Translations under genes and position numbers: made by a program
Notes under the pieces: generated by a model
The model's database searches: none
What the model saw: the letters and a program-made list of their open reading frames with translations, nothing else
Told to the model about the DNA's origin: nothing
Assembly (NCBI GenBank): GCA_051047955.1
Contig: JBPGPT010000001.1
Location: 124,001 to 188,000 of the forward strand
Direction: 5' to 3'
Length of the DNA stretch: 64,000 nt
From: Cystobasidiomycetes sp. EMM_F5
Taxonomy: Eukaryota
In this document: positions 4,390-50,639 of the stretch, piece after piece
Layout: each line of letters begins with the position of its first letter
Position numbering within the stretch: the first letter of the stretch is position 1

Positions 4390-6663
4390 TCACCAAGCAG
4401 ACTCGTCCGCCTTCGCTTTTGGTGCAAAACGTTTGGCCTTCTGCGATGCACCAGGGCTCGCTGCACCGGTCATCTCAGCCTCCTCCTCTTCCCATTCGTC
4501 AGGGTCTGGAAACTCGACGAGTTCGTTGTCGAAATATGGGACATTGTCTTCGACATCCTCGACGGTGTTGTACACCCCATCGGGGGCCTGCCTAGCCTTA
4601 ACTCGAGATCCACTAGTACCGATCCATAAGTCTAAGATAGGGTCGTAGTATGATTTACGATCAGCCGAATAAGTGACGGGTTTGTTTGTATTCGGGTTTG
4701 GCTGTGGCAGAGCAACCGGGGTATTAGCTGTTGGGTTTGGCGCAGCGTTCGTGGTAGGCGGGTATGCTCCGGTCTTGTAATCGGTGTAACCAGTGCCGGT
4801 TTTAACTATAACGTAGAAACAGAGGTCACTCCTGCTATCTAAGAGCCATAACCATGATGTTCTTACCTGTCCATCCCATGCTTTGCATTATTGCAACCGT
4901 GCCGGGGCCGACGGCTCTTCGCATGTCAATCTTTTGGAGCGCAATGACCTATTTATGAGGTATGGTAGAGTTCAGCACCGCGAACGTCGGCAGAAGGGCA
5001 GTCATTCAGCAACGTGTGGTCCAGGAGGGACGTTGGGCCATGTCACAGTGGTGGAACTTACGTCATTTAGCTTATTGGCTGGCAAAAGACCGTTCGTTTT
5101 GGCGATGTGCTGAGCGACTGTGGTTGACGACGCGCTTTGATAGATCATAAGGAACTCTGGTGTTTCCCGATATGTGTCCGCATCCAAGTGATTGCAGGAG
5201 CTGCCCGGCTTGTACGGATTTAGATGCGTCTCAATGAAGAGGTCGAGATTGCCAGCTCTTGTGTTGAATGTGAGCGACTTGCTACTCGTCGACAAAGCTG
5301 CCATACTGGACAACAGGTCGACTACGACTGGGGATTGCTTCAAAAAAGCGTTGTTGGCGGCCGGAAGTCGGGAATTATCATTCGGGAAAAGAACGCTGTT
5401 TGCGTAGTTCACGATATCTGAACGGGACGTCTTGGTTGGCGGAGTGTTGTATCGGATAAATCGATCATAAATATTTTCCGTCAAGCTGCCGGCGCCTTCG
5501 TTTCCAAAGCTGATCACAGACGGAAGATAAATGTCCTTGCCATTATAAGACGATCTGCTCCACATGGAGGCGAAGCCTAGGCCGTGTAGCAGCTATAAGT
5601 GCAACAGCTCAGAATATCGACAGAATATCAACAGAAAGTCTAGCTGACCTCATGAAGGACCGTTCCAAGGACATCATAGACTGGATCGTTGGTGGCGGCA
5701 GGCAACTTGTCGCCTTGGAAGTAGAGGCGATTCTTCGTGAAGCCCGGTCCGTGATCAATGTCGCGTGAACTTCGAAATTTGTATTGCGCGGTAGTCCAGA
5801 TCGTCAGAGAAGCGTCTTTTAGGAGACCAAACCCACTGACTTACTTGATATGCACGTTGATATCGTAAGTCTCCAGGCTGAAACTGGCGAGGTCGGCCGC
5901 GGACAGGATTTGCTTTACCAAAGCCTGGGGATAATAGCGCGTCTGGCCATCATCGCTAACGAGAGGCAGTAGACGGGAGGGTCCAGCATTGCCTAAGGCC
6001 CCTGGCGTTTCACCTGGCGAACATGCTCCGCCAGCTCCGTTGCAGTACGGTTTGATCATCAGATTCCTAGCCATCGAGACAGTCAGACAACAAACGCTTC
6101 GAAACGCCTCGAAGTACATCAGTTCGTCCCCTTACACCTTAATCCTGGTCTTGATATCGAAGATGCCTGACAAGATTTGCCCGGCGCGGTTGAAGGTCGA
6201 AATGACCTGCGTGCAATAGTCGGCCCGGGAACTAGCACTGCAAACGAGTGTCAGAAGGGACACGGCTACGCCAACGACAGAGAATGTTCTACTTACGATT
6301 GACACGGGAACGACTGAATGAAGTCGAACATGGACGAACTGCCGCCATTGCTGACTAATAGGGGTGGAGCAGCGGACTTATGCAGGTCAATTTGCAAACA
6401 GACGGGGGCGTTGAGCGATGAGGTAGGCGGAGGTGTGAGGAATCTCGACTCACTGAGGGTACAACAGGGGCCGTCTTGGGCGCCCGGTATGCTCGCTTGG
6501 ACCGGTCGGCTACCATGCACTCCACAGGATAATGCGTCTTATTTGTTGGGTGGCTTTGTGCCAGACATGGAAGCGCTTCCTTAGCCACTGTAGGGGCCGC
6601 AGTAGGATGTCCCAGAGCGAGCGAAGCGCCTGTTGCTAAAGTTCCCAGTGTGAAAAGGAGCAT
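4390..6663 (-). CDS. Secreted zincin metalloprotease-like protein (HExxHxxGF...H...M topology), multi-exon
   Basis: Signal peptide MLLFTLGTLATGASLALG, then RYYPQALVKQ, YDVLGTVLHE|LLHGLGFAS across intron 5593-5648, then GSSCNHLD and PEFLM, followed by a Pro/Thr-rich and an acidic tail. 3' end approximate. Confidence 0.8.
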
Positions 6664-9823: not shown

Positions 9824-12800
9824 ATGGAGTCTGCAAAGGGCATCGTCCGCAAAGGCTCGGGCTTCTTCAGGCGAGACAAAGGCGAGCACCATCATGACGG
9901 CGGCGAGCAACAGCAGCAGCAGCAGCATACTGCCGTGCCAGCGAACCCGATATCGGCAGTCAGACCTCTGCACGCACGGCGGGACAGCGCTTCGTCCGTC
10001 AAAGCAGCAATGCAGCTCAACCAGCACTTGATGTCATCGTCATCGTCCGAAGCAGTACCGCTGCCCTCGTACGCCTCGACGCCCGGAGGCAGAAAGAGGA
10101 GCGACAGCTTTGCTCCGTCTCCGCTTTCCGCAAAGCCCGGTCAGTTTGGCGAGCTCGTACGTCTCCATGTAGGCCGACTAATCTGAGTACTCCCCATGTC
10201 CCAGCCACTGCCATGAGTCCAGAAGACTCGCTCAAGAGTTACGAGCTATTCGAGGCACTACGGATGCGTCAGTCGCCTTCACAGAAGCCATTTTGATGGG
10301 GCTGTGCTCACTGTTATCGCCATGTATGCAGACGATCCGATACATTCGACGAATGAACAAACGGCTGCGCTCGTTGCTGCAGTCCAAGCTGCACCGCGGT
10401 CTGGGCCGGGAGTACCGACGCCGCTTCATACAGCAGTCAGATGCGCAAAGGTTCGTACTTCCTCCGTTTCTGCGTGTTGTGTGTTGCCCGCCTGTCGTTT
10501 GCTACCTGCCTGCCGTCGAACGGCAAGCCCCGCTCTCCGGGCCGGCAGCCGCAGAGGGCAGGCTGAAGCACCCATCATGCAGTCCTAATGCTGACTTTAC
10601 GTCTTCTTCTTCATTCCGCTTTCGTCTCATACACCACTCGATACATCGACGATCCTGTGCCCCACGTGCACCTCCTGCAACCTCACTCTCTGGCCTCCTT
10701 TGCACTCCTTGCCCATCACAAAACTTTCCGCCTCTTCTCTGTCAATTGCTCTTTCCAACATTGTCAATATCGACGACACGATAATCGATACCACGATGAA
10801 CATGGCCTCGAAACCGGACATGCTGCATTCCGGACTTCGCTTACATCCGCGATTGACGCACCGCTTCTCCTCGATTGATGTCCTATCCGAAACATCATGG
10901 ACTTGCAATGATGCCACTTATACTACCCCGGCCACGCATCGACAACCTAATTCTCAATCTCCAACACCACACAATCCTTCTGTGACGTATATCCCACGAT
11001 GGCTTCTTTCTCTGGTGCACAACCGATACTCGCGTATGAATGGGTCGCGCGTTGTGGTCTACATTACCGACGATCAAATTGCTTCTCTTATGCTCCGACA
11101 CCGCGATACACCTCACTTGTCTCCGCATGCACCAATGTCGTCCTCTATCGACTCCTGCATCAATGAACACGACGCCACTCTGCTCTCATTATACTCCGAT
11201 CAAATTGAACAGCTGCGAACCCTTGAGACTGTCTTGCCAGCTTGTGTCGGCGATATTAATGCTGTCGATGCAGATGGCCAGACTCCGCTACACGTAGCAG
11301 CCGCTCTTGGACGCGCTGATATTGTCAAACTCCTCCTCAGTCAACCTGATATCGTAAGTGTCGATAGTAAACTTGGCGTAACAGCGCTGAGTTTGCCATC
11401 GCGCAGAATGATGCTATCCGAGATCACAACGGTCGTACCGCTCTCGAGGTGGCCAAAGGTGCACAAGTGGCACAAGTCCTGCAAGGCAAGTTGACAATAG
11501 CCGTTCCAGCTTTTACAATTCCTAACGCATTACTACAGTCGCACGCGCTCAATATAACGAGACTTATATCTCGCTCTTGGCTGCCTATGCCGGAGCCTCT
11601 GGACAGTCGAGCCAGCGACAAAGCTTGACTGGCTATGCAACGCCAATCGCGACTGCTTCGGAGCCCATCGCTGTAGATGCGCTCACTACCAGTCTCGCCA
11701 ATACCGACACGCGAGAAGCACTGTATCGCTTCATCTCTAGGGAACGATCGTCAGGAATAGACTATTCAGCTTTGACTTCCGGGTCGAGAGGCACTACTGT
11801 CATTCACGAGGCAGCACGCAGAAGAGATGTGGATATGCTCAAGTTATGCGTTGCTCGCGGCGCTTCCCTGGTAGTTCGCGACAGGAAAGGCAAAATGCCA
11901 ACCGAGTACGCAAAGGACGATGCTGTTCGTGCTATTCTCCGCCAAGGAGCTACGAGCGAAAGCCGAGCCCTGCGTCAGTCGACATCTTCTCTCGCTAGTC
12001 TCTCTCTAAACCCGTCCGCTGGAGCTGGATCAGCCTCGGCACCCATAATGAAGGGTTATCTTAGCAAATGGACAAATATGGCACGCGGCTACAAGACGCG
12101 GTGGTTTGTCCTTCATCATGGTCATCTCAGCTACTATCGCGATCAAGAGGAGGAAGGTCAAGCTTCGCGAGGTGTCATTAGCATGGCTATCGCAACCGTG
12201 GAAATCTCGACAGACAAAGCTGCATTTATCGTTGGCACTACGCTGGGCAAGACGCCCAGATGGTTCTTGAAGGGTGCTCATCCTGTCGAGGTCATGCAGT
12301 GGATCAACGCACTCAGGACCAGCATCGAATTCGTCAAAATGGCAGATCAGGGAAATGCTTCGTTGACTATCCCGTCTTCGCCAAGTATTGGCGGAAGCAG
12401 TCCAAACATGTCGAGCTCTGCAAGTCTGCAACCTCCACAGGGGGCTATGGCGTCGTCGGCTTCCTCCATTGGCCGGTCATCCAATGCCTCTGACATATCC
12501 CTCCCCTCAAACAGGGACGGCAAGCCGGTCTTCCCTGGCATTAAGCGAACGATCACGTCCGGTACGGCCAATACTGCCAATACTGATCTTGACGGCACAC
12601 GACCAACAACACCAGAAATGACCGATGAGGAGGATGCATCAGCTTCCGGATCCCATGCACATCCACCTCATGAGGATACCTTCGTCTTCACTTCGAACAG
12701 CACAAAGACGCAAATCCAGTTGACAGAGCAACTTATCTCATCGCTGACATCGCCTGAGGCGGACCGCGATCCTGCCAGACGCAAGCAGGTCGTTACTGCT

Positions 12801-14943
12801 GCCCAACAATCTCTTCGTTCACTAGCGCAGTACTTCGACACGCACCTTGAGCAAATTACTGACCGCGAGCGGTATTTCAGCAAGCGGTGGGAGCGAGAGA
12901 TACAAGCTAAGCGAATGTGGGAAGATAACATGAAGAATGTCATATCCTCGCAAGCTGATTTGGAGCGAGAACTACAAGACACTGCAAGACAGAACGAGCG
13001 GCGCAAGCGAGTGCTGAAGGATATCAAAGCTGGTATGGACGCGGACATGGCAGCAGCTGAAGCTGGTATGGCGCCGGCTGCTGCCGCTGTCATGTCTGAA
13101 CAATCTCCTGCTACCCCGTCTGCGGCCCTGATCGGCGGAGCACTATCGCCGAGCCGCCTTCGTTCTCCAACTGCCGTCAGCCACGGTGTTATCGCGCAGA
13201 TGGAGCAGCTTGCGGCTGAGTCGGACTCTGATGATGACGACGATTTCTACGACGCCGTTGAGAGTGGGACGTTGCCCATCAAGGTAGACGAGCAAATCGC
13301 TTCACCTGGAAGTAAGGAATGGCCAGAAGACTTTAGACCCAATATACCCGAGGATGCCCTTGCGAGCTTTCAGGGTTACCGCAATCTGCGCGACAGGTTG
13401 CCCATTACCAGCGATGAAAGACCCCCTGTCTCGCTTTGGGCTATTCTCAAGGGTAGTATCGGCAAGGATCTCACTAAGATCTCTTTCCCGGTGTATTTCA
13501 ATGAGCCGACTTCGATGCTGCAGAGAATGGCTGAAGATATGGAATATTCGGAATGCCTAGACGCAGCTTCTGCCGAACAGGATTCGCTCAAACGTATAGC
13601 TTACGTAGCTGGCTTTGCAATGTCGAACTATGCTTCCACCATTGGTAGAATCGCAAAGCCGTTCAATCCCATGCTGAGCGAAACTTTTGAAATGGCTAGC
13701 TTGGACAAGCATTACAGATACGGTGAGCGTCACTCAAAGTACTCCGAAGCGCAAATGGGCTGACGGTCTTCCGGACTACAGTGAGCGAACAAGTATCGCA
13801 TCATCCTCCAATGTCGGCTTGTATCGCAGAATCGCCAGATTGGCTGTACTAGTGAGTCGACATCTGCCATTGCGCGCTAAGCTCTTCAGCTCATATGCAT
13901 CTTTCTAAAGCGGCGAAGTTGATGCCAAATCTAAGTTTTTGGGCAAATCCTTCGAGATCCGGCCGACTGGGATCGCACATGCCGAGCTTCTCCTGCCTGA
14001 AGCATGGGTATCGGGACAGGGCTACCCTGCCTCACGAGGTCGCCCAGGCTATGTCCGAGAGCATTACTCGTGGAAGAAAGTCACCACTAGCATATCAAAC
14101 TTCATCATGGGATCCCCTCAAATTGATCACTATGGCGATATGGAGATTACCAATCATCGAACCGGGGAACGGTGTGTGCTGACTTTCAAGCCTCGAGGAT
14201 GGCGTGGCAAGGATTCGTGCGAGATCAAAGGTACTGTTTTCGATGCGAAGGGTACCATTAGATGGGATCTGGCAGGCAGATGGAACGGGCAGCTAGGTGA
14301 GCGACAGTAAGCTGTTGATCTGGTTCAAAGACTAATCTCTCTGGCTTGTAAAGTCGCGCGCCGCGCCGGTGCCGGTTCGGGAGCCTTAATGCCAGATGAC
14401 GCCGTTCCTACGGTCAAAGGATCCGCCTCAGCAATTGCGCCCGAATACCTTCTCATCTGGAAGATCAATGTCCAACCGCCGAACATGCCCTTCAATCTGA
14501 CGCGTTACGCACTCACGCTTAACGATAGTAACCCGGACATCAAGAAGTACCTTCCTCCGACCGATTGCCGCTTGAGGCCGGATCAGCATGCGTTAGTCGA
14601 GATCCAGAGCTTACCGAGACCTTCAGTCAGCTGATAGTGCCTAAACCTCTACAGTTTCGAATCTGGGCAGTTTGAGCAAGCGAACAATCTCAAGGGCGCT
14701 CTCGAGACCTTTCAAAGGGCAACGCGGACGAAGCGCGAAACTGGTGAACTCCCTCCGCATAAGCCACGTTGGTTCTCTCAGCAAATGGATCCAGATACCG
14801 GTGTCCCGTATTGGGAGCCTTCGAGATCAGACGATGGCAAGGTGGAATACTGGGATGTTCGATTGGCCAATTATCACCGCTTGCAAAAGGGGGGCAATCC
14901 TGAATGGCCCAATGTCGACGAGATCTTTGGCGTCAAATTTTAG
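9824..14943 (+). CDS. Oxysterol-binding protein with ankyrin repeats, PH domain, FFAT motif and ORD (Osh1/Osh2-like)
   Basis: Ankyrin TPLH motifs, PH domain (KGYLSKWTNMARGYKTRWFVL), FFAT motif DDFYDAVE, and ORD motifs KDLTKISFPVYFNEPTSMLQRMAEDMEY, KPFNPMLSET, EQVSHHPP and LPPTDCRLRPDQ. Confidence 0.95.
9908..9925 (+). repeat. CAA(CAG)5 short polyglutamine tract in the OSBP N-terminus
   Basis: caacagcagcagcagcag is visible in the sequence. Confidence 0.8.
10451..11212 (+). other. 762-nt phase-0 intron of the OSBP gene with a distant branch-point candidate and a 628-nt AG-free zone
   Basis: Donor AAG|GTTCGT at 10451, CCTAAT/GCTGAC at 10584-10595, no AG from 10583 to 11210, acceptor AACAG at 11212. 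Splicing rebuilds an ankyrin repeat TPLHTAVRCAK|LRTLETVL. Confidence 0.8.
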
Positions 14944-18050: not shown

Positions 18051-18469
18051 GTGAGTGGGTATATCGGATGCGCAGTGCAACGGCGAGCAGTGCCCAGTCC
18101 ATCCTGCCAGCCCGCTGAGGTGGCTCACGGATCTGCGCCCATTTTTCGTGGCCTGCCTCTTCGGAAAAACAAACACCTCTGCACGCCTCTGCGACTGTTT
18201 ACTGACTGCGCTCTCCACACCTCTTCCGCTCACGTCCCATCTGGCCCCTTTCACCTCACATTCTCTGGCGTCGCGACTCTGCATTCCTTCCTCTGTGGCT
18301 CGCGCTCTGCCCCGGGCCAAATAAATCAAAAAAACTCGCCCAAATCGAAACAAAACTTTGCCCGGTCTCGCACATCAAACACGACTGGCGCGCCGATATT
18401 ATTTACAAACCGAAATCAACACTGAACCGTCTCCTCTGGTCTGACTGCTGGCAATACTCTACAATCTAG
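18051..18469 (+). other. Putative 419-nt 5' intron of the AT3-GT2 gene with a 348-nt AG-free zone
   Basis: Donor GTGAGT at 18051, last AG at 18118-19, GCTCAC at 18123 and TACTGAC at 18200, next AG is TAG ending at 18469, 27 nt before the ATG at 18497. Confidence 0.65.
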
Positions 18470-18496: not shown

Positions 18497-21400
18497 ATGT
18501 ACAGCAACAGCGGCGGTCTGGCGCAACCTTCAGGGTCGGGCGCAAACATCAACAGCATGCGAGGCAGCGACTCCTCAGTCTACGATACCATTACATCTCC
18601 CACCAACGCCCACCATCCAGATCAGCACCACATGATGCACCACCAGCAGTACGATTCTGGCATGGCGTCTCCAGGCGGCGGTGTAGGGCATCCAAACCCC
18701 CAGCTCGGCGTTGATCCTGGCTACCACTCTGTAGGTGGTGCATACACGACTGTCAACAATCCTGGCAATACAGGTGCCCTCTCTGCTGGGCCAATGGGCG
18801 GTCATCACTCGGAGCCGTCAAGTCCGACCATGCAACAAGGTGGTGGCGACGATGCAGACTCAAACGGCGATTCCTCTTCAAACGGTTCGACAAAGGTAGA
18901 CTCACGCTCACCCAGCGCATACAGAGTCGGGAGACCTGGCTACCCAAACCAAAGCGAGGTGAGTGGTGTCAAAAACACGTCCCATTGCCACTTGCCACAT
19001 TTTCACCCAAGGAATGCTAACATGTAATCTGCACGCGTGTCTTTTTTGTTTGTCAATACAGTCAAATGACGGACATCATGGCTACTCTGAAGGGTTATAT
19101 GCTTCTCGGACCGCCAACAACTCTACCGGCTACGTGGATGCTCCCTTATTTCACCCCTCCTCACCCGGGTCTGCGCAGTCACACAATACGTATGGCAGAT
19201 TCAGAACAGGCTCATACCCCGGTCTCGACTCTAGTCGGACGAGCAGTATAGGCACACACGAAGGTGCCAATATCCCTTACAACACTTCTCGAACAGCTCT
19301 CAATAACGAATGGCGGCATTCTGTCGATACCACCAATGAAATCAACGCCATTGGTGGACCAGGAGGGGAAAAGTATAGAGGATTTGACGCGTCTGATGAG
19401 AAGCTCATAGCCAAGAATGGCCAAACCTACCAACCTATTCCCCCTTCATCGCCCGCTATGGGCGTGTCGACAAACGAAAAGTCGGCAAAGGGAGACGGAG
19501 CTGGCGGAGATGGTAGTAAGAAACCCGAAGCAGCTGTCGTTTTGAGCAGAGTCAACCGTCTAGCTTGGATTGATGGTCTTCGTGGCTTGGCTTCCATCGT
19601 CATCTTTACCCATCACTTCAGCGATCTTACGTGGACCATTTCTCACCCAAATGTCCTTTCGGACGGATCTACCTACGGCTTTGTCAAGAATGGACAACTG
19701 GCAGTCGGAATGTACTTCTTACTTGGTGGTCGTGTCTTGGCTCACGGTTTCCAGCGCTCGGCATTTGCCCCTCCCAAAGTTGCAAAGGACTCGCATGGTG
19801 CAGTCATCCCCGGAGCGCCCCTCATTCGCTCAGCGGGTCCAAAGTGGCTCTCTCTGTCCAGCTCCCTCTTCCGTCGATCTATTCGTCTAGCCTTCCCGGC
19901 CATAATCATTGGCTTTATCCAATGGCAAGTCTGCCTGAGAGGGTGGACTTCCACTGCAATTCTCGCCAACGAGCAGGTCCTTCGACCGACAAATCTGTGG
20001 GAGGCGACTTGGTGCGAAATTGGCGATGGTTTTGGCGACTTCTTGCAATTCTCCCTCGACCTTTTCACAAACCCGAATCATCAATATATGCTCTATGTCG
20101 GTTCTGCCCTTTGGACTACCTACGATCAATTCTGGGGATCCACGCTCGTCTACATTATCGCCGCTCTTACTGCTCCTATGGCTTGGAAGGGTCGTTATGT
20201 CTTGTTTGCCATCATTACCGTCTCACTGTGGTGGATCAATAGCTCAAACATGCTTTACGTGATCGGTCTGTGGGTATCTGATCTACATGCATCCGGCTTT
20301 GTCCGCAAATTGCAAGATCACTGGAAGCCTACTTTACTCATCGAGGTGCTCGTCATGACTTTGGCATTGGCCATGATTGGCGGTGGTTCCACCGTTGCTT
20401 CTCCAGCTGATCGCGCCATTGGCAAAATCACCGTCTACAATGGTCTGTTTGGCTGGCAACCCAGCTTCACATGGCCACAGTACATGTTTATGAGCAACTG
20501 GATTGTCGCCACGGCCATTCTCGTCTGGGTCGAAATCTCGCACGCCATGCAATGGTTTGCGTCATGGGGTATCTTTGTCTGGATTGGCAAGGTCTCGTAT
20601 GGCTTCTACCTCTTACAATTCCTGACTCTATACGGTCTCATGCCCCATCTCGTTATTCACTTTGCCAACCAAGGCCATTCTTACTGGGATATCGTTGTGC
20701 CAGCGTACATTCTCTGCCTCCTCTTCAACTTCTTTGTCGCTTGGGTTGCGTACCACCTTCTCGACAGAATCGGTCTCAAACTCGGAAAATGGATCTGGGA
20801 TGGATTCTTTGTCACCAAGCCAAAGACGTTTGGCAGCATGCCTCTGAAATTTGCAAGGTATTTGGGCGATGTCATCGTGCACGGACCTGGTCGCGCTGTC
20901 AAGGGAACGTCGAGCTCGTTTTCATCCAAATGGGCTGGACTTTCAAAATCCGCATGGACTATTGCACACTGGCGCACACCGACTACGAGACCACCTATTC
21001 CATCGCCAACTGACCCGGAAGTTCTGTCTCAGCTGCACTCCACTCGATGGACTACTGATCTTTCCGGCGACAAGGAGGCCATGAGGTGCCACAAGCTCCT
21101 CAAGTGGCAACAATGGTCGTGGGTGTTCCATCTTTTCTGGATTCCGGGCATGACTGCTATTTGGGTCATCTACCACCCCACCGGTCAATGGACATGGGAC
21201 GGTGTTACGTTCTCCACATTATGGCGTTTCATTTGGGTGCTGTCCGTACCGAACTGTCTCGCTGGTTGGTTTGGTTTCATCACACCAGACTGGGCACCCT
21301 CAAAAGAGACTATGGACAAGAAGCCAGTATGCAGAGAACATATCCGCAACTTCTTCATCGTCCTCGTTACCAAAGGATCTAACGAGTCTGCCGTCCGTCG

Positions 21401-22504
21401 TGGCTACAACAAGCTCGTCAAACTCGAGAAGTATCACCCCGCTGTCAAGACTGTCGTGTAAGTGTTATGCATGCTATAGTCAAAGGATGTACGTTGACGT
21501 CTAGACTATCTTTCAGCCTTACCGATGAGCCGTATGTGTACCCTGATCTCCAAAACATTGTGTGCCCGAAGGACTACGTCTCTCCGCTCGGTAAAGCCAA
21601 GTACAAGGCTCGTGCGCTCGACTACCTCCGTTACCACGTCTCTCTCGGTGTCTATGACTGGATCTTGCATATGGACGAAGAATCCGTTACAGATGCCGAG
21701 ACTATCCGTCGCTGCTTCGATTTCATCCGGTATACTCCCCATCATTTCGGTCAAGGTATGATCATGTACAACGGCGAAGGTTACTGGGACAATTGGTACT
21801 TCACAGTAGCAGACGGTATTCGTGTCGGTGACGACTTGGCCCGATTCCACTTCCAGAACACAGTCATTCAAAGGCCAGTCTTTGGTGTTCACGGTTCATT
21901 CTTGCTTACCAATGGAGAAATGGAAAATGAATGTACATGGGATTTCGGCTCTCTGGCAGAAGATTTCGAGTTCTCCCAAGATGCTTGGAGAAGAGGATTC
22001 ACATGTGGAAGAGTACACGGTATTGTGCGAGAACAATCCCCAGGCACGCTCCGCGATTTCCTCAAGCAGCGAAGACGTTGGTTTATGGGTATTCGCGACA
22101 TCAAAGGCATGTACGGTCTACCGCATCTTGCTGTCAATCTCTGGACTGTCGGCGTCTTCACCCTCGCTGTTACAATCATCAACTTGCCGTTTACGCTCAT
22201 TGATACCTCCCTCACTCCGTTCTGGTTGGCACTGTTGGCAGACTTCTGCTTCATTGTGAGCACGCTGAGAGCACATTGCGGCGAGCATTTGACTGATCCG
22301 TGCACACAGACATTTATTACCATTTACACATGGGGTCTGCTCATCCAAGAGCTCGACTACGGGCAAAAATGGTGGCTCATCTGCATACATTTACCGGCGT
22401 CCATTGTCATTCAACCTTTTGCAAGTATATCTGAAGGACTGGCTGCCATTTGGGCCATGTCGAGTGAAGATTTCGGCAAATTCGAAGTCATTGCGAAGAA
22501 GTGA
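18497..22504 (+). CDS. Acyltransferase-3 domain fused to an Egghead/BRE-3-like GT2 glycosyltransferase (~1263 aa; exons 18497-18958, 19062-21457, 21517-22255, 22310-22504)
   Basis: AT3 motifs: RLAWIDGLRG..HH, FRRSIRL, LWT, GKVSYGFYL. GT2 motifs: VTKG, YKARAL, HMDEES, ADGIRVGDD, HGSF, AEDF, EQSP, KQRRRWF. Exon lengths sum to 3792 nt in frame. Confidence 0.9.
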
Positions 22505-29757: not shown

Positions 29758-32700
29758 TTATCGCCTTTCCCGCAATAGAAGTACAGACAGGACCAAAGCA
29801 GACCCGAACAATCCTATCCAGCCAAATAATACAAGAACGTCACTGTACGGCGACAACAGTCAGCATATACGCGCAAAGAAGCTAAGTAACCAAGTACTTG
29901 CCGGTAGTAACTGTCCATCTTGAAGCCAAACAACAGCTCCATTATGATTTGCGCGTTTATCGAGACCGGGACACCAGATAGGACGTCGTTGATCATCAGT
30001 CCACCGCTCACTTCGTTAACCGATAAAGCTTCAAGGGTATATCTAAGGCCAAATGTTCAGCAGAATCACATTGTTCGGCTAAGCGAACGGACTTCAGTGG
30101 ATTGAGCCATTGTATCCACCGCAAAGCAGGCGGAATTTTTGAGAGATTAACAAAGAATCCTGCATATGCCAGTTGAGCCAGATTTATGACATTAGCTACC
30201 AACACTGCCACTGCTGGCTGAGGGATGACGACTGCCAGGAAAAGATTCCATAGAGTGATTGCCGCAGAGAATTCAACAAGAATGAGCAAGAACTATCAAA
30301 GTGAAGCAGAGCCGTCAATGTGGTTAGCCATCACGAACAAACACTTTGAGCTTGCCTTGAAGAAGTGCGCGGCGTCGGGCGACAACCCAACCATCCAGTA
30401 TGTTATGACGCCGAGTATTACCGTGGGCAAGAGTCGCAACGGCACAATATCCCAGATAGCACGCGATAGCATCCACACAATTGGTCCATAGTAGGCGGAA
30501 GCCCGTTCACGAAGGAAGAGCGACTTCACCACGGAGAGATTGGACAATGCTGAAAGGGCAGAGAAAGCGACCAGCGCACCTAAAAAGAAGAGTGCTCCGA
30601 TGCGGTCCTGAAAGCCAGCTATGGTGGTGTCGACCTTGAAATACAGTCCACCAACGAAGAGGCCAACTATAGCAGCAACCACGTTGTGCATAATGATAAG
30701 ACTGTAGTCTCGCCGAAGATTCAAGAACTCGCGATGGCTAAGTGCCTGGAATTGAGTCAGTCGCGTAGTCACTGGCCTCGCTGCCCTCGCCTTGACCGGT
30801 ACATAATTGTTATTTCCGTCATGTTCGTCTGATGTGCGATTTGCAACACCGCCGTATGAAGCCAGATAATCGTCCGATGGCGGGCCGGACGTATCGCCGC
30901 GACTGTCACTAGAGCGCGATTTATCCAAGTTGTGGATCGGTATAAGGTTTTGCTTCGAGCAGTTCGGCGAGGATGCAATGTCTAGCAAGTCTGGCGCACG
31001 TTGTGTTTCATCAGGACTAGCTACTTCCGCTTGGACTCGTCTTACTTACGATCGGCTGGATTCCAATCTTTAGGACATGGCATACCTTGCGCTGCGAAGT
31101 ACGCAGTGGCTGAAGCGGCGGGACCCAAGTATATTTGCAACCCTTGTGATGACAGGACCAATATAGTGTCAAAAGCGTGCTATATTGCTTCCACGTCAGT
31201 GTAATTCACCATATTTGCAATGAACCTACGAATATCTGAGAAGATGGCTGATGTATTGTCGCAACAATTGTAGTCCGCCCGAAAGTAGGGTCTTCATTGT
31301 GAGCCAGATCCCGTAGAACCGCCACCACTTTCGCGGCAGAAGTAGAATCCAATCCGGATCTACGATAAAAGGTTAGATCTTACTGCGCACTGTCAATTTC
31401 GATACTCACGTAGGCTCATCGAGAATCAGAATGGATGGTAATGCTATCAATTCCAAGCCAATGCTTAGCCTACGCCGTTCGCCCCCGCTGATACCGCGGC
31501 GTTCTCCCGAGCCAATGCGTGAATTTGCGATGTCCTGCAGGCCAAGCTGTCCCAAGACTTGCCATACTCTTTCCGCTTTCTCATCGTCGCTGATTGCTTC
31601 TGACAACTTCAGCCTGGCAGCAAACATTAGTGCTTCCCGCACAGCTGGCAAAGGTTGTCAAATGAAGAGTTTTAGCAAAGGAGGATGCGTTACAGGCTTA
31701 CTCAGATTTTCGGGCAGTATATCGGCTTGATCGACATAACCGATTCTCACGGCGGATGCTGAACGATCTCCAGTTGAAGAAATATGCACACTGCCTCTGA
31801 CTCGCCCAATCTTGCGTTTACCGGCCAGAATATCGACGAAAGTGCTGGTTCGGATTGTCAGTACATGCTCTTCACAATTCATGTCGTCCTGTAATAGCAC
31901 TCACGACTTTCCAGCTCCAGATGGCCCTAGGATTGCCATGAAAGCCCCGTATGGTAGCTCTCCGGACAGATCATCGAGCACAACCCTGCCGGAGCGCCCA
32001 TTAGAACGCGCTGGGAGTTCTGCGTTCTTCTCGTGGGCTGCAGTGCTCCCACTACGAGCGCTATGAGGGATTCGTCGTCGGAAAATGCTCGACATCGCGG
32101 CGCCCGATTGTGTCGGCAATGTGTATCCGATGTGCGACCATGTCAGACCGGCGGGCGTAGCTTGCGAAAGGTGTTGCCTTCCGCCCTTTCGTGCTCGTCT
32201 TTGTGCAACAAGGCCTAGCAAAAGAGCCAGAAGTACCAGACCGACCAGTCCTCCGACTACTGCCAGGCCTGCGATAACGCCCCCCGATAATCCATCACTA
32301 GCGCTTGCACTTCCAGTCCCAGAGTACTGCTGAACTACGGTAGATGACACACATTCTCCAAAGCGACAGCTGCTGAGCGCCAGCCCACTCTGTCCAAAGA
32401 GCTGCTGGAGCGTTGACTGGATGAAGCTACAAGCACTGCCGTCATAGCCACAGTTTATTTGCAGGTTTCCCGACAGGCCATTGAGGGTATCTGTCAGATT
32501 GAGCGGCGGACTGCAGAATGCCGCACCGGAAATACATCGACATTGCAGATTATTACACGAGAGCTTGATTTGGGAAGATGTGGTATCGTTTGTTTGAATG
32601 CACGAGTCTGCGGCACAGTAGAATTGTTCTTGCGGAAAAGCGGATGCGTTTGCAGAGTACCATAGTTGGGCATAAGTGGTGTTTTCAGGAGACAGACCCT

Positions 32701-43263: not shown

Positions 43264-44436
43264 TCATAAGCTTCGCGGAATAGCCTGCGCCTGTTGCCAC
43301 GTTTGCCTCTTTTGTATGGCAGTGGATACATACGCTGCAGCTTCAGGAATATCCGGAGCGCCTTGAATGCGAGGGCAATGATGCACGTCCAGATTATCTG
43401 CGTTGTCTGGTGTTTGAGGCCCAGCAGATAAAGGCGCCGACGCCGGGGATGAAGGGGAATGAACGGCTGACGGGAAAGCAGATGAGAAAGCAGAGGATGA
43501 TGTAGACGATGTCTGAGATGAAGATTGGCTTGAGTACGCCTGAGATGAGCTGGTCGGGTATCCGAAAGCGTCTAAAGGGGTTTGCTGAGGAGACGAGGCC
43601 ATTGAAGCATTGGCTTGATAGCGTTGCGCGGAGCTTGGAGGGGAAAGAGATCTGCTGCTCTTGCTGGATGACGGAGAAGTGTGGCGGTAGGTGTGTGGCC
43701 GCAGAAGAGCACGGGCAGCATGTTTGGCCTGCTCGTGTCGGGCTTCTTCCTCGGCAGCACGACGTGTCCTTGAAGCGTCTCTGGCACGTTGTTGGCATGT
43801 TCGTGACCAGGCAGCTTCAGCTGAGCTGACAAAGTTATCCAGCTCAAACTTGCTTGCTACCACGTTCCAGCCGAGGAACGCAAACAGCTCCCTCTCCATC
43901 TGATTGACTTCCCGCAAACTGAAGTAGCTGGAGCCGACGATAGCCCAGGACTTATTGGAGTACGTGTCATCCATGCTGATCTTGGCAGACAACATCAGAG
44001 AAGACAGGAAGAGCCGATGTGGCGACGACGACGTTCCCCTGGCTGACGGATATCTCTGCTTGAGTCGGCTGAGCAGCAGCAGCGACTGATGCACGATGGA
44101 CACGGGTAAGCGCGTTCGGTATAATGCGTATGCCTGTGACAGATTTTGGCCGAGAGACGCGTTGAATTTCAGGGACGCGGTGGGTCAGCCAATTGGAATT
44201 TTCCGGTCAAATATGTCGAAACGCCTTACAATGAACTCTAGAAGCACAGGAGGCTGCTTGATGTGCGACGGCGACGCTGCAGGCGTGTATGGAGGTGTAT
44301 CGATGCCCTCACTCGAACAGCCTATGACTGTACCTGAGGTGGCGGCGCCGGCTGAAGACGGCTGACCAATTTCGAAGAGGGCAGCGATGACATACTCGCA
44401 AAACTCTGCGAGATCTTGAGATTCAGACGACGACAT
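43264..44436 (-). CDS. Pcl-type cyclin (Pcl1/Pcl5/Clg1-like) with a Ser-rich PEST-like tail
   Basis: LLEFI|AYALYRTRLP...LLLLSRLKQRYP, HRLFLSSLMLSAKISMDDTYSNKSWAIV, EVNQMERELFAFLGW. Confidence 0.9.
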
Positions 44437-48406: not shown

Positions 48407-50639
48407 TTACGGCTTTGCTTCCCTGTAAAATAGATCCGAGAAATCATTTACGCTCATCTTTTGCAAAGCAGCCTTATCGTTGAAGGTTGCGATGATTCTT
48501 CGGTAAAGAGGTTATGGAATCAGACGAGGGCTATTGCGTTATCAGCTTTGCGACTCACTTCTCCACGTGTTCCTTTGAATACCAAGGAGCAACATGACGT
48601 TTGAATTTAGCTTCTAATAGCGGTGTCCCTTCAGCACGGCGGCTGCAATGAGCAAAACAATCAGTCAAAGTACCGCCGCAAGAAGCGACGAGTATGCACC
48701 GTTTGTGACCAACAGGATACAGCACCTCCACCTCGTCTAATACTGTTCCGTCATTGAGCGTGATCGTCAATGCATTACCGATAGATCGAGAGTCTGGATT
48801 GTGATAGTCGGTTGAGAAGAAGTCATCTTCCACGCATTCCATCTACCAGCGTACTCATCAGCGACACCTTCCACACAACGCATGTCTGCATACATACCTT
48901 TTCGCGTAGTGCGTCAATGCGAGGGTCTGCCGCTACGGCGTCAGTGTAGTCATCCGTTGTCAGGCGTCCGAAAATCAGTGGGATTGCGACCATATATTGG
49001 ATCTTCATTCGAGCTCGCTGTCAGCCTGCAATGCGACAATAGCATGCGATGGACGCACAGTGTGATCGCGGTCTGCGAAATTGTGCAAAGGCCCTTTCTT
49101 ATCGATGATGCGGATCTGAATGGAGAGCTATACATCAGTGATGACATGATATGATAAAATGGACTCGTGTGCGAAACGAACGGCGGCGTTCTGAGTGCGA
49201 ATCTTGACATGCTTAATGTCATCACTGGTCTTGCCCATCTCGCCCAACTTAGCATACAGGGTATGGGCAGCTTCGGCTGCTGTCTGTGCGTGGAACTCGG
49301 CCGGGAAGCTGATTTTGAAGAGAATATTCTCCATGATGTAAGAACCGTATGGCCTTTGGAACTTGAATTCATTGCCCTTGAAGCATACATCGTAGAAGCC
49401 CCATGTCTTGACCGTCAAAGCAGACCGATATCCCATCTCGCCCTTCTGGACCAATAGAGCGAGATTGACAGCTCGACTGCATGCATCGCCAGCTGCCCAA
49501 GATTTTCGCGAGCCCGTATTCGGCGCATGTCGGTAAGTACGCAGCGATGAGCCGTCGATAAAAGCTTGAGAGACGACATCGGCGGTTTGATCTTGGGTGA
49601 GGCCAAGTAGCTTCGAGACGACAGCCGCAGATGCGACCTTGACGAGCAAAACATGGTCTGTCGTGAGAGGTGTCAGCGAATGTCGCTAGTTCAGCATTCA
49701 TCTGCAGTACCTAATCCGACTTTGTTGAAGCTGTTCTCAAGAGCTAAACACCCTTGAATCTCGTGAGCCATGATCATGGACTCGAGAATGTCTTTTACGG
49801 TCAAAGGAGCTTTTCCATTTGCAACGTTGGTGCGCGAGATCCAGTCCGCTACAGCCAAGATTGCACCCCTATAGACATTCGAGGGTCAGGTAATCCTCTA
49901 TCATGCTTAAGCATTACGTCCATACAGATTGTCACTTGGGTGTCCCCACTCTGCCGCCCTGTCTCAGCAAGGTTCATCAGCTCTATGGGTGTAAAAAGCC
50001 TTGAAATCGACATCATTGCGTACAGCCAACAGTCTGAGGTTATCAAAAGTCAGTGACAGCTTTCCTCGGAACAAAGGTAATGATCTGACCATTATAGTCT
50101 AGCCAGCGAATTGCGGTACCGATGTTGAAAGCGGCTCTGATAGGATCCAATTGGTAGGGCGTGCCTGGCACACGAGCTCCATTCGGAACAACAGTGCCTT
50201 CGACTACGGGTCCCAAGATGTTTGTACATGTTGGGAAACGGAGACCTTCTAGACCCTGCAATAAGAAGAACCTAAGTTGCAAATTCAGATTAAGCAAAAT
50301 ACAGGACCCTACGCAGCCGATGGTATCCATCAGGCAAAGCCTAGCCGTCTCCATAGCCAATTCACTGTCAATCTTGAAGTTGTGTACATAGCTAGCAATG
50401 TCGTCGAAAACCTGATCCGGCGGTGGTCGCACGGTCAGCTTCGGATCCGCCTGGTGCATCTTGTGCGAGGCCGAAGCACTGAAAGCCCGGAAGTTCTGAG
50501 GCTTGATGGTTGCGCTTGAAGGGTAAGCGAGATGGGCGACGGCGCTAGAGGTCTGGTGAATCCGAGTAACGTTGACAACTGGTGCGACAGCTACGTGACT
50601 ACGAGACGGCAGAGAAGCGCCTAAGCGTCGAGCGAGCAT
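48407..50639 (-). CDS. PDH1: 2-methylcitrate dehydratase, mitochondrial (PrpD/MmgE)
   Basis: Arg/Ser-rich presequence, [57 protein letters not shown]. Confidence 0.96.

Follow-up and report, generated by a model that had tools for sequence, protein, structure and literature searches.

How can the splicing machinery of a yeast with short introns find an acceptor that lies more than six hundred nucleotides past the first good branch-site motif? The question is raised by an oxysterol-binding protein (OSBP) gene of Cystobasidiomycetes sp. EMM_F5, located on contig JBPGPT010000001.1 (assembly GCA_051047955.1). The whole stretch of DNA analysed, referred to below as the window, comprises 64,000 nt (contig positions 124,001 to 188,000), and all positions given are those of the window, on the + strand if not stated otherwise. 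The other delimited introns of this gene measure 65, 64, 53, 53 (a GC-AG intron) and 59 nt, in keeping with the 50-70 nt stated for most introns of the region in the original prediction, which had been made from the letters of the window. One intron extends over 762 nt, and the 628 nt preceding its acceptor are devoid of the dinucleotide AG. This run far exceeds anything attributable to chance or composition. Very likely it constitutes a selected AG-exclusion zone tied to branch sites that lie a long way before the acceptor, an interpretation common to both branch models considered below, and we regard as on balance probable the more specific model, in which the zone serves an early branch point near the start of the intron.

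Judging from its orthologues, the segment 10451..11212 (GTTCGT...AACAG; 762 nt = 254 x 3) is a genuine spliceosomal intron. In the tblastn comparison, the residues preceding the junction in the orthologous proteins reached approximately positions 10450-59, the following ones were matched from 11219 onwards, and nothing was matched in between. In these orthologues (P0003 and P0004) TPLHTAVRCAK runs directly into LGTVDLVL or PGTVDLVL, and since no residues separate RCAK from L/PGTVDLVL, the 762-nt segment is to be regarded as an intron. The upstream coding exon (10332..10450), delimited by tblastn of P0003/P0004 and by translation, ends in phase 0 with ...TPLHTAVRCAK, and the downstream one (11213..11353), delimited by tblastn, translation and the orthologue sequences, opens with LRTLETVLPACVGDINAVDADGQTPLH and encodes ankyrin repeats; the window translation across the junction, TPLHTAVRCAK|LRTLETVL, fits the orthologues. 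The acceptor AG (11211..11212), placed by the AG positions, tblastn and translation, is the first AG past the branch motifs, and orthologue alignment and translation agree with the earlier claim that its use restores an ankyrin repeat.

The history of the intron was followed in 13 related metagenome loci, nine of which are genomic with matches flanking the site, three are transcript-like or lack the N-terminus, and one is an unrelated fragment. The intron was read in five of the nine genomic loci (L004, L005, L007, L009 and L010, representing four lineages). All five possess a short intron of 57-68 nt situated 1 nt further 3' (phase 1, after AAG+N, versus phase 0 here), and in each of them CTGAC, CTGAT or CTGAG precedes the AG by 18-22 nt. 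The presence of a short intron within 1 nt in related yeasts indicates that the intron position is old and that the intron has grown approximately tenfold in the lineage under study. The 1-nt offset would reflect either an intron slide or a re-gain at almost the same site.

Computation of AG positions on the + strand yielded none between 10583 and 11210, the flanking ones being at 10581-82 and 11211-12, so that the absence of AG asserted in the original prediction was borne out. From the composition of the zone (A 142, C 214, G 97, T 175; 62% pyrimidine) 21.9 AGs are expected (mononucleotide expectation; Poisson P ~3e-10), and from the AG rate across the whole window (6.56%) about 41. The depletion is specific to AG and to the strand, since the remaining dinucleotides are all present at near-expected numbers, including CT, that is AG of the opposite strand (65 occurrences versus 59.5 expected). 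A scan for AG-free runs, which the prediction had proposed for the genome, was run over the window: AG alone among the 16 dinucleotides has free runs longer than 212 nt, namely two of 630 and 350 nt, all the rest being at or below 212 nt. When a 64-kb window was simulated 200 times with a first-order Markov model, gaps free of AG or CT never exceeded 199 nt, the longest gap per simulation having a median of 132.5 nt. Among the 13 related loci scanned, the longest AG- or CT-free run was 155 nt, apart from the 232 nt found in an AT-rich unrelated fragment (L013).

The onset of the zone is abrupt, with six AGs in the preceding 57 nt and none in the following 628 nt. All seven AGs internal to the intron (10526, 10547, 10553, 10555, 10560, 10567 and 10581) are contained in its first 132 nt, which are GC-rich. 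Within the zone, 239 dinucleotides are one substitution away from AG (AA 30, AC 60, AT 52, CG 45, GG 11, TG 41), hence a neutral sequence would gain an AG after about 1% divergence, which argues for ongoing purifying selection. Presumably it is selection, and not youth of the sequence, that keeps the zone AG-free.

At the 5' boundary of the zone a motif scan revealed tandem branch-point motifs (10585..10595), CTAAT at 10585-89 (A 10588) and CTGAC at 10591-95 (A 10594), which begin 3 and 9 nt past the last AG and whose adenosines are 624 and 618 nt distant from the acceptor G. They adjoin a pyrimidine tract (10596..10635; 80% pyrimidine, 45% T), by composition the richest of the intron, and thus the branch-like motif and the tract described in the original prediction were both recovered. 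The strict consensus CTRAY occurs three times in the whole intron (10585, 10591 and 10947) and is not found within 260 nt of the acceptor. In the final 40 nt before the acceptor the pyrimidine content is 60%, as compared with 80% past the distal motif, and the relaxed motifs near the acceptor are CTCAT at -24 (11185..11189; A 11188, 24 nt before the acceptor G) and CTCAC at -97.

Between the donor GTTCGT at 10451 and the branch motifs, folding and comparison with shuffled sequences predict a GC-rich hairpin (10470..10582; core 10490-10563). The segment 10451-10600 folded alone gave -60.4 kcal/mol versus a shuffle mean of -47.1 (z -3.41; 0 of 200 shuffles were as stable), and the hairpin core persisted in the wider fold 10421-10680. 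The long irregular hairpin would loop out most of the 143 nt separating the donor from GCTGAC; in the full predicted structure the unpaired path amounts to 19 nt from donor to stem plus 12 nt from stem to A 10594, in total about 31 nt, a length similar to the ~30-45 nt that can be deduced from the ordinary 50-65-nt introns here. The hairpin encloses all seven internal AGs and a decoy, CTGAA followed 16-17 nt further by GCAG (10579-82), the use of which runs straight into TAA. Splicing of 10451-10582 alone was rejected on account of this immediate TAA, and nested (stwintron) or recursive splicing within the zone is impossible without an internal AG. Downstream of the branch motifs, the AG-free zone (10583..11210, 628 nt) is predicted to be unstructured: the branch-to-acceptor stretch is no more structured than its shuffles (z +0.29; folding equal or better in 12 of 20), and no fold bringing the acceptor near the branch was found in it.

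In the early-branching model, the donor GTTCGT would pair with the first good branch site, either GCTGAC (A 10594) or CTAAT next to it (A 10588), while the hairpin, by looping out ~113 nt, would reduce the unpaired donor-to-branch path to ~31 nt. After early branching, exon ligation would use the first downstream AG, and purifying selection would keep the intervening 618 nt AG-free so that this first AG is the true acceptor. The unstructured zone would allow the acceptor to be reached by scanning or by a first-come search, as proposed for animal distant-branch-point introns, and, unlike in budding yeast, no fold would shorten the way from branch to acceptor. The drop in AG frequency falls exactly at the strongest branch motif, the one with the best pyrimidine tract and with the hairpin, as would be expected if this motif branches. 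With regard to the original prediction, which had described a distant-branch-point intron with a short donor-to-branch unit of about 140 nt, the part concerning a real OSBP intron and a non-random exclusion of AG from the branch motif to the acceptor stands on homology and statistics; the short unit is favoured by the hairpin, the pyrimidine tract and the AG drop, and which adenosine branches, as well as the spanning of 618 nt in the second step of splicing (step 2), we infer from motifs and predicted folds. The prediction mentioned neither the hairpin nor two further features described below, a second AG-free run and an open frame in phase with the next exon.

A second AG-free run is situated 7 kb from the OSBP zone, at 18120-18467 (0 AG versus 13.5 expected). 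Its 5' side comprises GTGAGT at 18051, six internal AGs in 68 nt up to 18118-19 and CTCAC at 18124; the run contains TACTGAC (18200-06) and CTGAC (18441) and ends at TAG (18467-69), 28 nt upstream of the ATG at 18497 of a gene for an acyltransferase-3/glycosyltransferase-2 membrane protein. According to AG statistics and motifs, the segment 18051..18469 looks like a 419-nt intron of the 5' untranslated region (UTR) designed like the OSBP intron; no significant fold was detected in its 5' part (z -0.86). Two predicted introns on the - strand, 4949-5061 (113 nt) and 44134-44229 (96 nt), also lack internal AGs (4.2 and 4.0 expected, respectively), the latter with CTGAC 51 nt before the acceptor, and they may obey the same rule on a smaller scale. 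Matching AG-free stretches also occur in introns whose CTAAC or CTGAC is 41-51 nt upstream of the AG.

Several observations weigh against early branching. The relaxed motif CTCAT is found 24 nt before the acceptor, and this spacing is normal in this organism: in the short introns delineated by a crude self-trained gene finder (47-113 nt), a branch-like motif is mostly located 13-25 and in some cases 35-51 nt upstream of the AG. In the neighbouring intron of the same gene (64 nt; 10268-10331), the sole branch-like motif at normal distance is CTCAC, 21 nt before the acceptor, which makes a proximal branch plausible. In the second AG-free run, a perfect CTGAC precedes the acceptor by 25 nt, which shows that a canonical proximal branch site and an AG-free zone are not mutually exclusive. 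In the wider fold 10421-10680 the outer stem of the hairpin is replaced by other pairings. The structural distance from branch to acceptor, 20 versus a shuffle median of 22 and equalled or shortened in 40% of 60 shuffles, is a weak statistic when based on minimum free energy (shuffle median 11). According to a preprint on spliceosome profiling, step 2 in Cryptococcus neoformans may not tolerate more than 50 nt between branch and 3' splice site (bioRxiv 10.1101/224170), and artificial lengthening of this distance to ~120 nt abolishes ACT1 splicing in Saccharomyces cerevisiae (PMC3239191). Finally, an open in-phase frame inside the zone, described below, is unaccounted for by the early-branch model.

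The best surviving alternative, which we consider rather unlikely, is that the proximal branch is the productive one. Splicing would then proceed mainly via CTCAT (A 11188), and the AG-free zone would act as protection: the early branch-like sites (10588/10594, CTCAT 10626, CTCAC 10682, CTAAT 10947, CTCAC 11112) would sometimes be used, any AG downstream of them would give rise to mis-spliced mRNA, and selection would have purged these AGs, with step 2 never productively spanning 618 nt. Besides the canonical distance of CTCAT and the precedent of CTCAC in the 64-nt intron, such a scheme also explains the second AG-free run with its perfect proximal CTGAC, agrees with the reports that long branch-to-3' splice site distances hamper step 2 in yeasts (bioRxiv 10.1101/224170, PMC3239191), and would offer a gradual evolutionary path, every lost AG improving fidelity. 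It is less easily reconciled with the totality of the exclusion (0 of ~22), which persists even far from any branch-like motif, and with the lower mutational cost of losing some decoy motifs in place of every AG. Moreover, the strongest branch motif, flanked by the distance-shortening hairpin and the best pyrimidine tract, precisely marks the start of the zone, whereas CTCAT deviates from the CTRAY consensus and is followed by only 60% pyrimidine.

The open frame mentioned above covers 206 codons (10595..11212) in phase with the downstream exon, as established by translation and shuffling. The intron has only two in-frame stops, TAA 10586 and TGA 10592, both inside the branch motifs, and the other two frames of the zone have 5 stops each. 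Among 5000 dinucleotide-preserving shuffles in which the AG-free state was kept, this frame was open in 8 and any frame in 23. The stretch 10591-10795 is free of ATG, and the next three ATGs (10796, 10802 and 10820) are all in the open frame with A at -3. The codon score is positive in the open frame only (+0.075 versus -0.29 and -0.16 bits/codon; 0.14-0.24 in exons), and falls to +0.035 bits/codon when stops and AG-containing codons are left out. Three-base periodicity is weak overall (chi-square 14.7, p 0.02, versus 19-39 in equal-sized pieces of the real exon), and downstream of the ATG there is none (p 0.23). In the predicted product S, L, T, P and H abound, and K, E and G are nearly missing. 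No homologue except the window's own open reading frame (ORF) was retrieved from 5.8 billion clusters by a word-seeded search limited to near lengths, nor by phmmer from 1.84 billion representatives; the frame matched no Pfam family, and neither the rest of the window nor the 13 related loci contained a similar stretch.

From these data a second transcript can be envisaged, which would start inside the intron and be translated from ATG 10796 (or 10802/10820) into exon 11213, yielding an OSBP isoform with a new 139-residue N-terminus and without the first ankyrin repeat; it would fit either branch model. We judge such an isoform improbable. It would explain why the frame stays open over 206 codons (8 of 5000 shuffles), why the ATG-free stretch is succeeded by three in-frame ATGs with A at -3, and why only the in-phase frame scores positive for codons in an intron whose length is a multiple of 3. 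Set against this are the lack of a homologue or Pfam family in the searches made, the weak periodicity vanishing past the ATG, the low codon score left after filtering, the skewed amino-acid composition, and a product beginning in the middle of the ankyrin domain; furthermore, the open-frame statistics were chosen post hoc, after inspection of the data. Still more doubtful is the combined picture of a yeast lineage with an expanded-intron class (two members in the window), employing hairpin-aided early branching and a linear search over AG-free RNA, in which the OSBP zone would also code for the 5' extension of an isoform expressed from an intronic promoter. If true, the same 618 nt would be under splicing (no AG) and coding (no stop) constraint at once.

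That the AG-free run is due to chance, composition or artefact (a pyrimidine-rich insert, a young insertion or a repeat element) is hardly credible, since, although the zone is 62% pyrimidine and runs of 135-186 nt do arise compositionally in membrane-protein coding exons of the window, this explanation predicts 21.9 AGs, free runs of the other dinucleotides never exceed 212 nt, simulated ones reach at most 199 nt, no second copy of the zone exists in the 64-kb window or the 13 related loci, its internal repeats are not longer than 23 nt, and Rfam, which covers snoRNAs and other known structured RNAs, gave 0 matches at E up to 1 for 10300-11400 on both strands. Within the window and these loci, the missing second copy likewise gives no sign of an introner-like or otherwise repeated mobile intron. 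Hypermutation resembling repeat-induced point mutation (RIP) or editing was rejected as the origin of the zone as well, TA being depleted, not enriched, and GG not enriched.

The identity of the host gene rests on its large exon 11541-13721, whose matches are oxysterol-binding proteins that combine ankyrin, PH and OSBP domains. The closest named relative is that of Cystobasidium minutum (49% identity), followed by Sporobolomyces, Rhodotorula, Melampsora and Puccinia, i.e., Pucciniomycotina yeasts and rusts; metagenome relatives are closer, with 63% (P0002) and 52% (P0003) protein identity. These matches assign the host to a yeast lineage of the Pucciniomycotina. The window product (P0001) comprises PF00169, PF15409 and PF01237, to which full-length relatives add ankyrin families, and the collinear tblastn matches place the intron in an ankyrin-PH-OSBP gene of the Osh1/ORP1L-like type. 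Its GC-AG intron (11486-11538, +; donor GCAAGT, 53 nt) has CTAAC 13 nt before the AG, and the resulting join VLQ|V(A/S)RAQ is backed by orthologues. Further upstream, a Q-rich exon of about 105 residues (9826-10139, +; MESAKG...) would read in frame into the MSPEDSLK exon after removal of a 65-nt intron, 10140-10204 (+; GTCAGT...CTAAT...CCCAG), in which an AG 5 nt past the branch A is skipped; the candidate starts of the OSBP gene are accordingly 9826 or 10213.

Elsewhere in the window, AG-free runs of 135-186 nt are found in coding exons of the acyltransferase/glycosyltransferase and ABC-2 transporter genes (20002-20188, 21103-21287 and 22105-22240 on the + strand, 30356-30524 on the - strand). 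They stem from the hydrophobic codon composition of multi-pass membrane proteins and call for caution in genome-wide scans for AG-exclusion zones. Long introns proposed by the crude gene finder (266-1154 nt, with normal AG counts) were considered as counter-examples and discarded as untrustworthy; the 1154-nt one joins exons without support. In an MmgE/PrpD-family gene, where a 432-nt intron was called at 49658-50089 (-), positions 88-146 of the MmgE_PrpD_N profile are missing between the predicted exons, which points to a small exon and two short introns hidden in this call.

How the 3' splice site is found after branching is a matter of debate between linear scanning, diffusion with first-come capture and structure-guided docking. 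Early branching in the OSBP intron, if true, would bring a fungus with short introns under the animal-type rule, and at a length above the human cases of 381 and 438 nt, while the 618-nt unstructured AG-free interval would provide a compact genetic substrate for measuring the reach of step 2. Should early branching be general among fungi with short introns, AG exclusion would mark how an intron can grow tenfold without mis-splicing, and any genome could be searched for this evolutionary signature. In annotation, gene finders tuned to introns of 50-70 nt will overlook introns of this kind or join them wrongly; the crude gene finder used here placed the start of the OSBP gene at an ATG within the intron.

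Exitrons, or introns retainable in frame, are a known class to which the 762-nt intron can be compared. It shares with them a length that is a multiple of 3 and a frame open over 206 of 254 codons. It differs in that two stops block read-through from the upstream exon and in that the segment interrupts an ankyrin helix and is absent in the orthologues; accordingly, an exitron or translated retained intron was rejected (762 = 3 x 254, but TAA 10586 and TGA 10592 are in frame).

The closest resemblance is to animal distant-branch-point exons. The human ones possess AG-exclusion zones, close to whose 5' end the branch site is located; the longest named are those of PTB exon 11 (381 nt) and nPTB (438 nt), and AGs inserted into such zones serve as acceptors (PMC1431707, Gooding et al., 2006); human AG-exclusion regions are stated to be unstructured (PMC3239191, Gahura et al., 2011). 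An animal-type zone can be recognized by an AG-free run of at least 100 nt, beyond chance, ending at an acceptor, and by a consensus branch motif with a pyrimidine tract at its 5' end. The OSBP intron shows a run of 628 nt with both signals at its 5' end, and its RNA is predicted to be likewise unstructured. As to a further mark of this type, the lack of a competent branch site close to the acceptor, strict CTRAY is missing from the last 260 nt, but the relaxed CTCAT and CTCAC occur there. Unlike the human cases, it is longer (628 versus 381/438 nt), belongs to a yeast whose other introns measure 47-113 nt, is not associated with an alternative exon, and has a branch site predicted from motifs.

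Among fungi, stem-loops between branch and acceptor in COF1, UBC13 and PSP2 of S. cerevisiae shorten the distance and hide silent AGs, and budding yeast reportedly depends on such structure for the 3' splice site and does not scan (PMC3239191). The OSBP intron is similar to these in being a fungal intron with a branch motif far from the acceptor, but it has neither excess branch-to-acceptor structure (z +0.29) nor any AG to mask, so that neither hallmark of the S. cerevisiae type is found. For Schizosaccharomyces pombe and C. neoformans, the use of early branch sites has been described above all for introns longer than 150 nt, the authors suggesting that size is measured before the first step (Burke et al., bioRxiv 10.1101/224170). 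A donor-near branch and a branch-to-3' splice site distance far above the usual 15-30 nt would be common to those events and to the intron studied here; they were called non-canonical and possibly dead-end, whereas in the OSBP intron the downstream part appears adapted by AG exclusion. On the donor side, the predicted hairpin is reminiscent of the 'zipper' stem of S. cerevisiae RPS17B, which shortens the effective donor-to-branch distance (Rogic et al., 2008, PMC2536676), with the differences that the present stem is a prediction in a basidiomycete host and that its outer part depends on the flank folded. The open-access literature and bioRxiv, subscription journals not being covered, contained no report of an AG-exclusion zone in fungi beyond the discussions concerning S. 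cerevisiae. It is a well-founded hypothesis that the OSBP intron carries an unstructured AG-exclusion zone of the animal type in a short-intron basidiomycete yeast, combined with a donor-to-branch module shortened by a hairpin.

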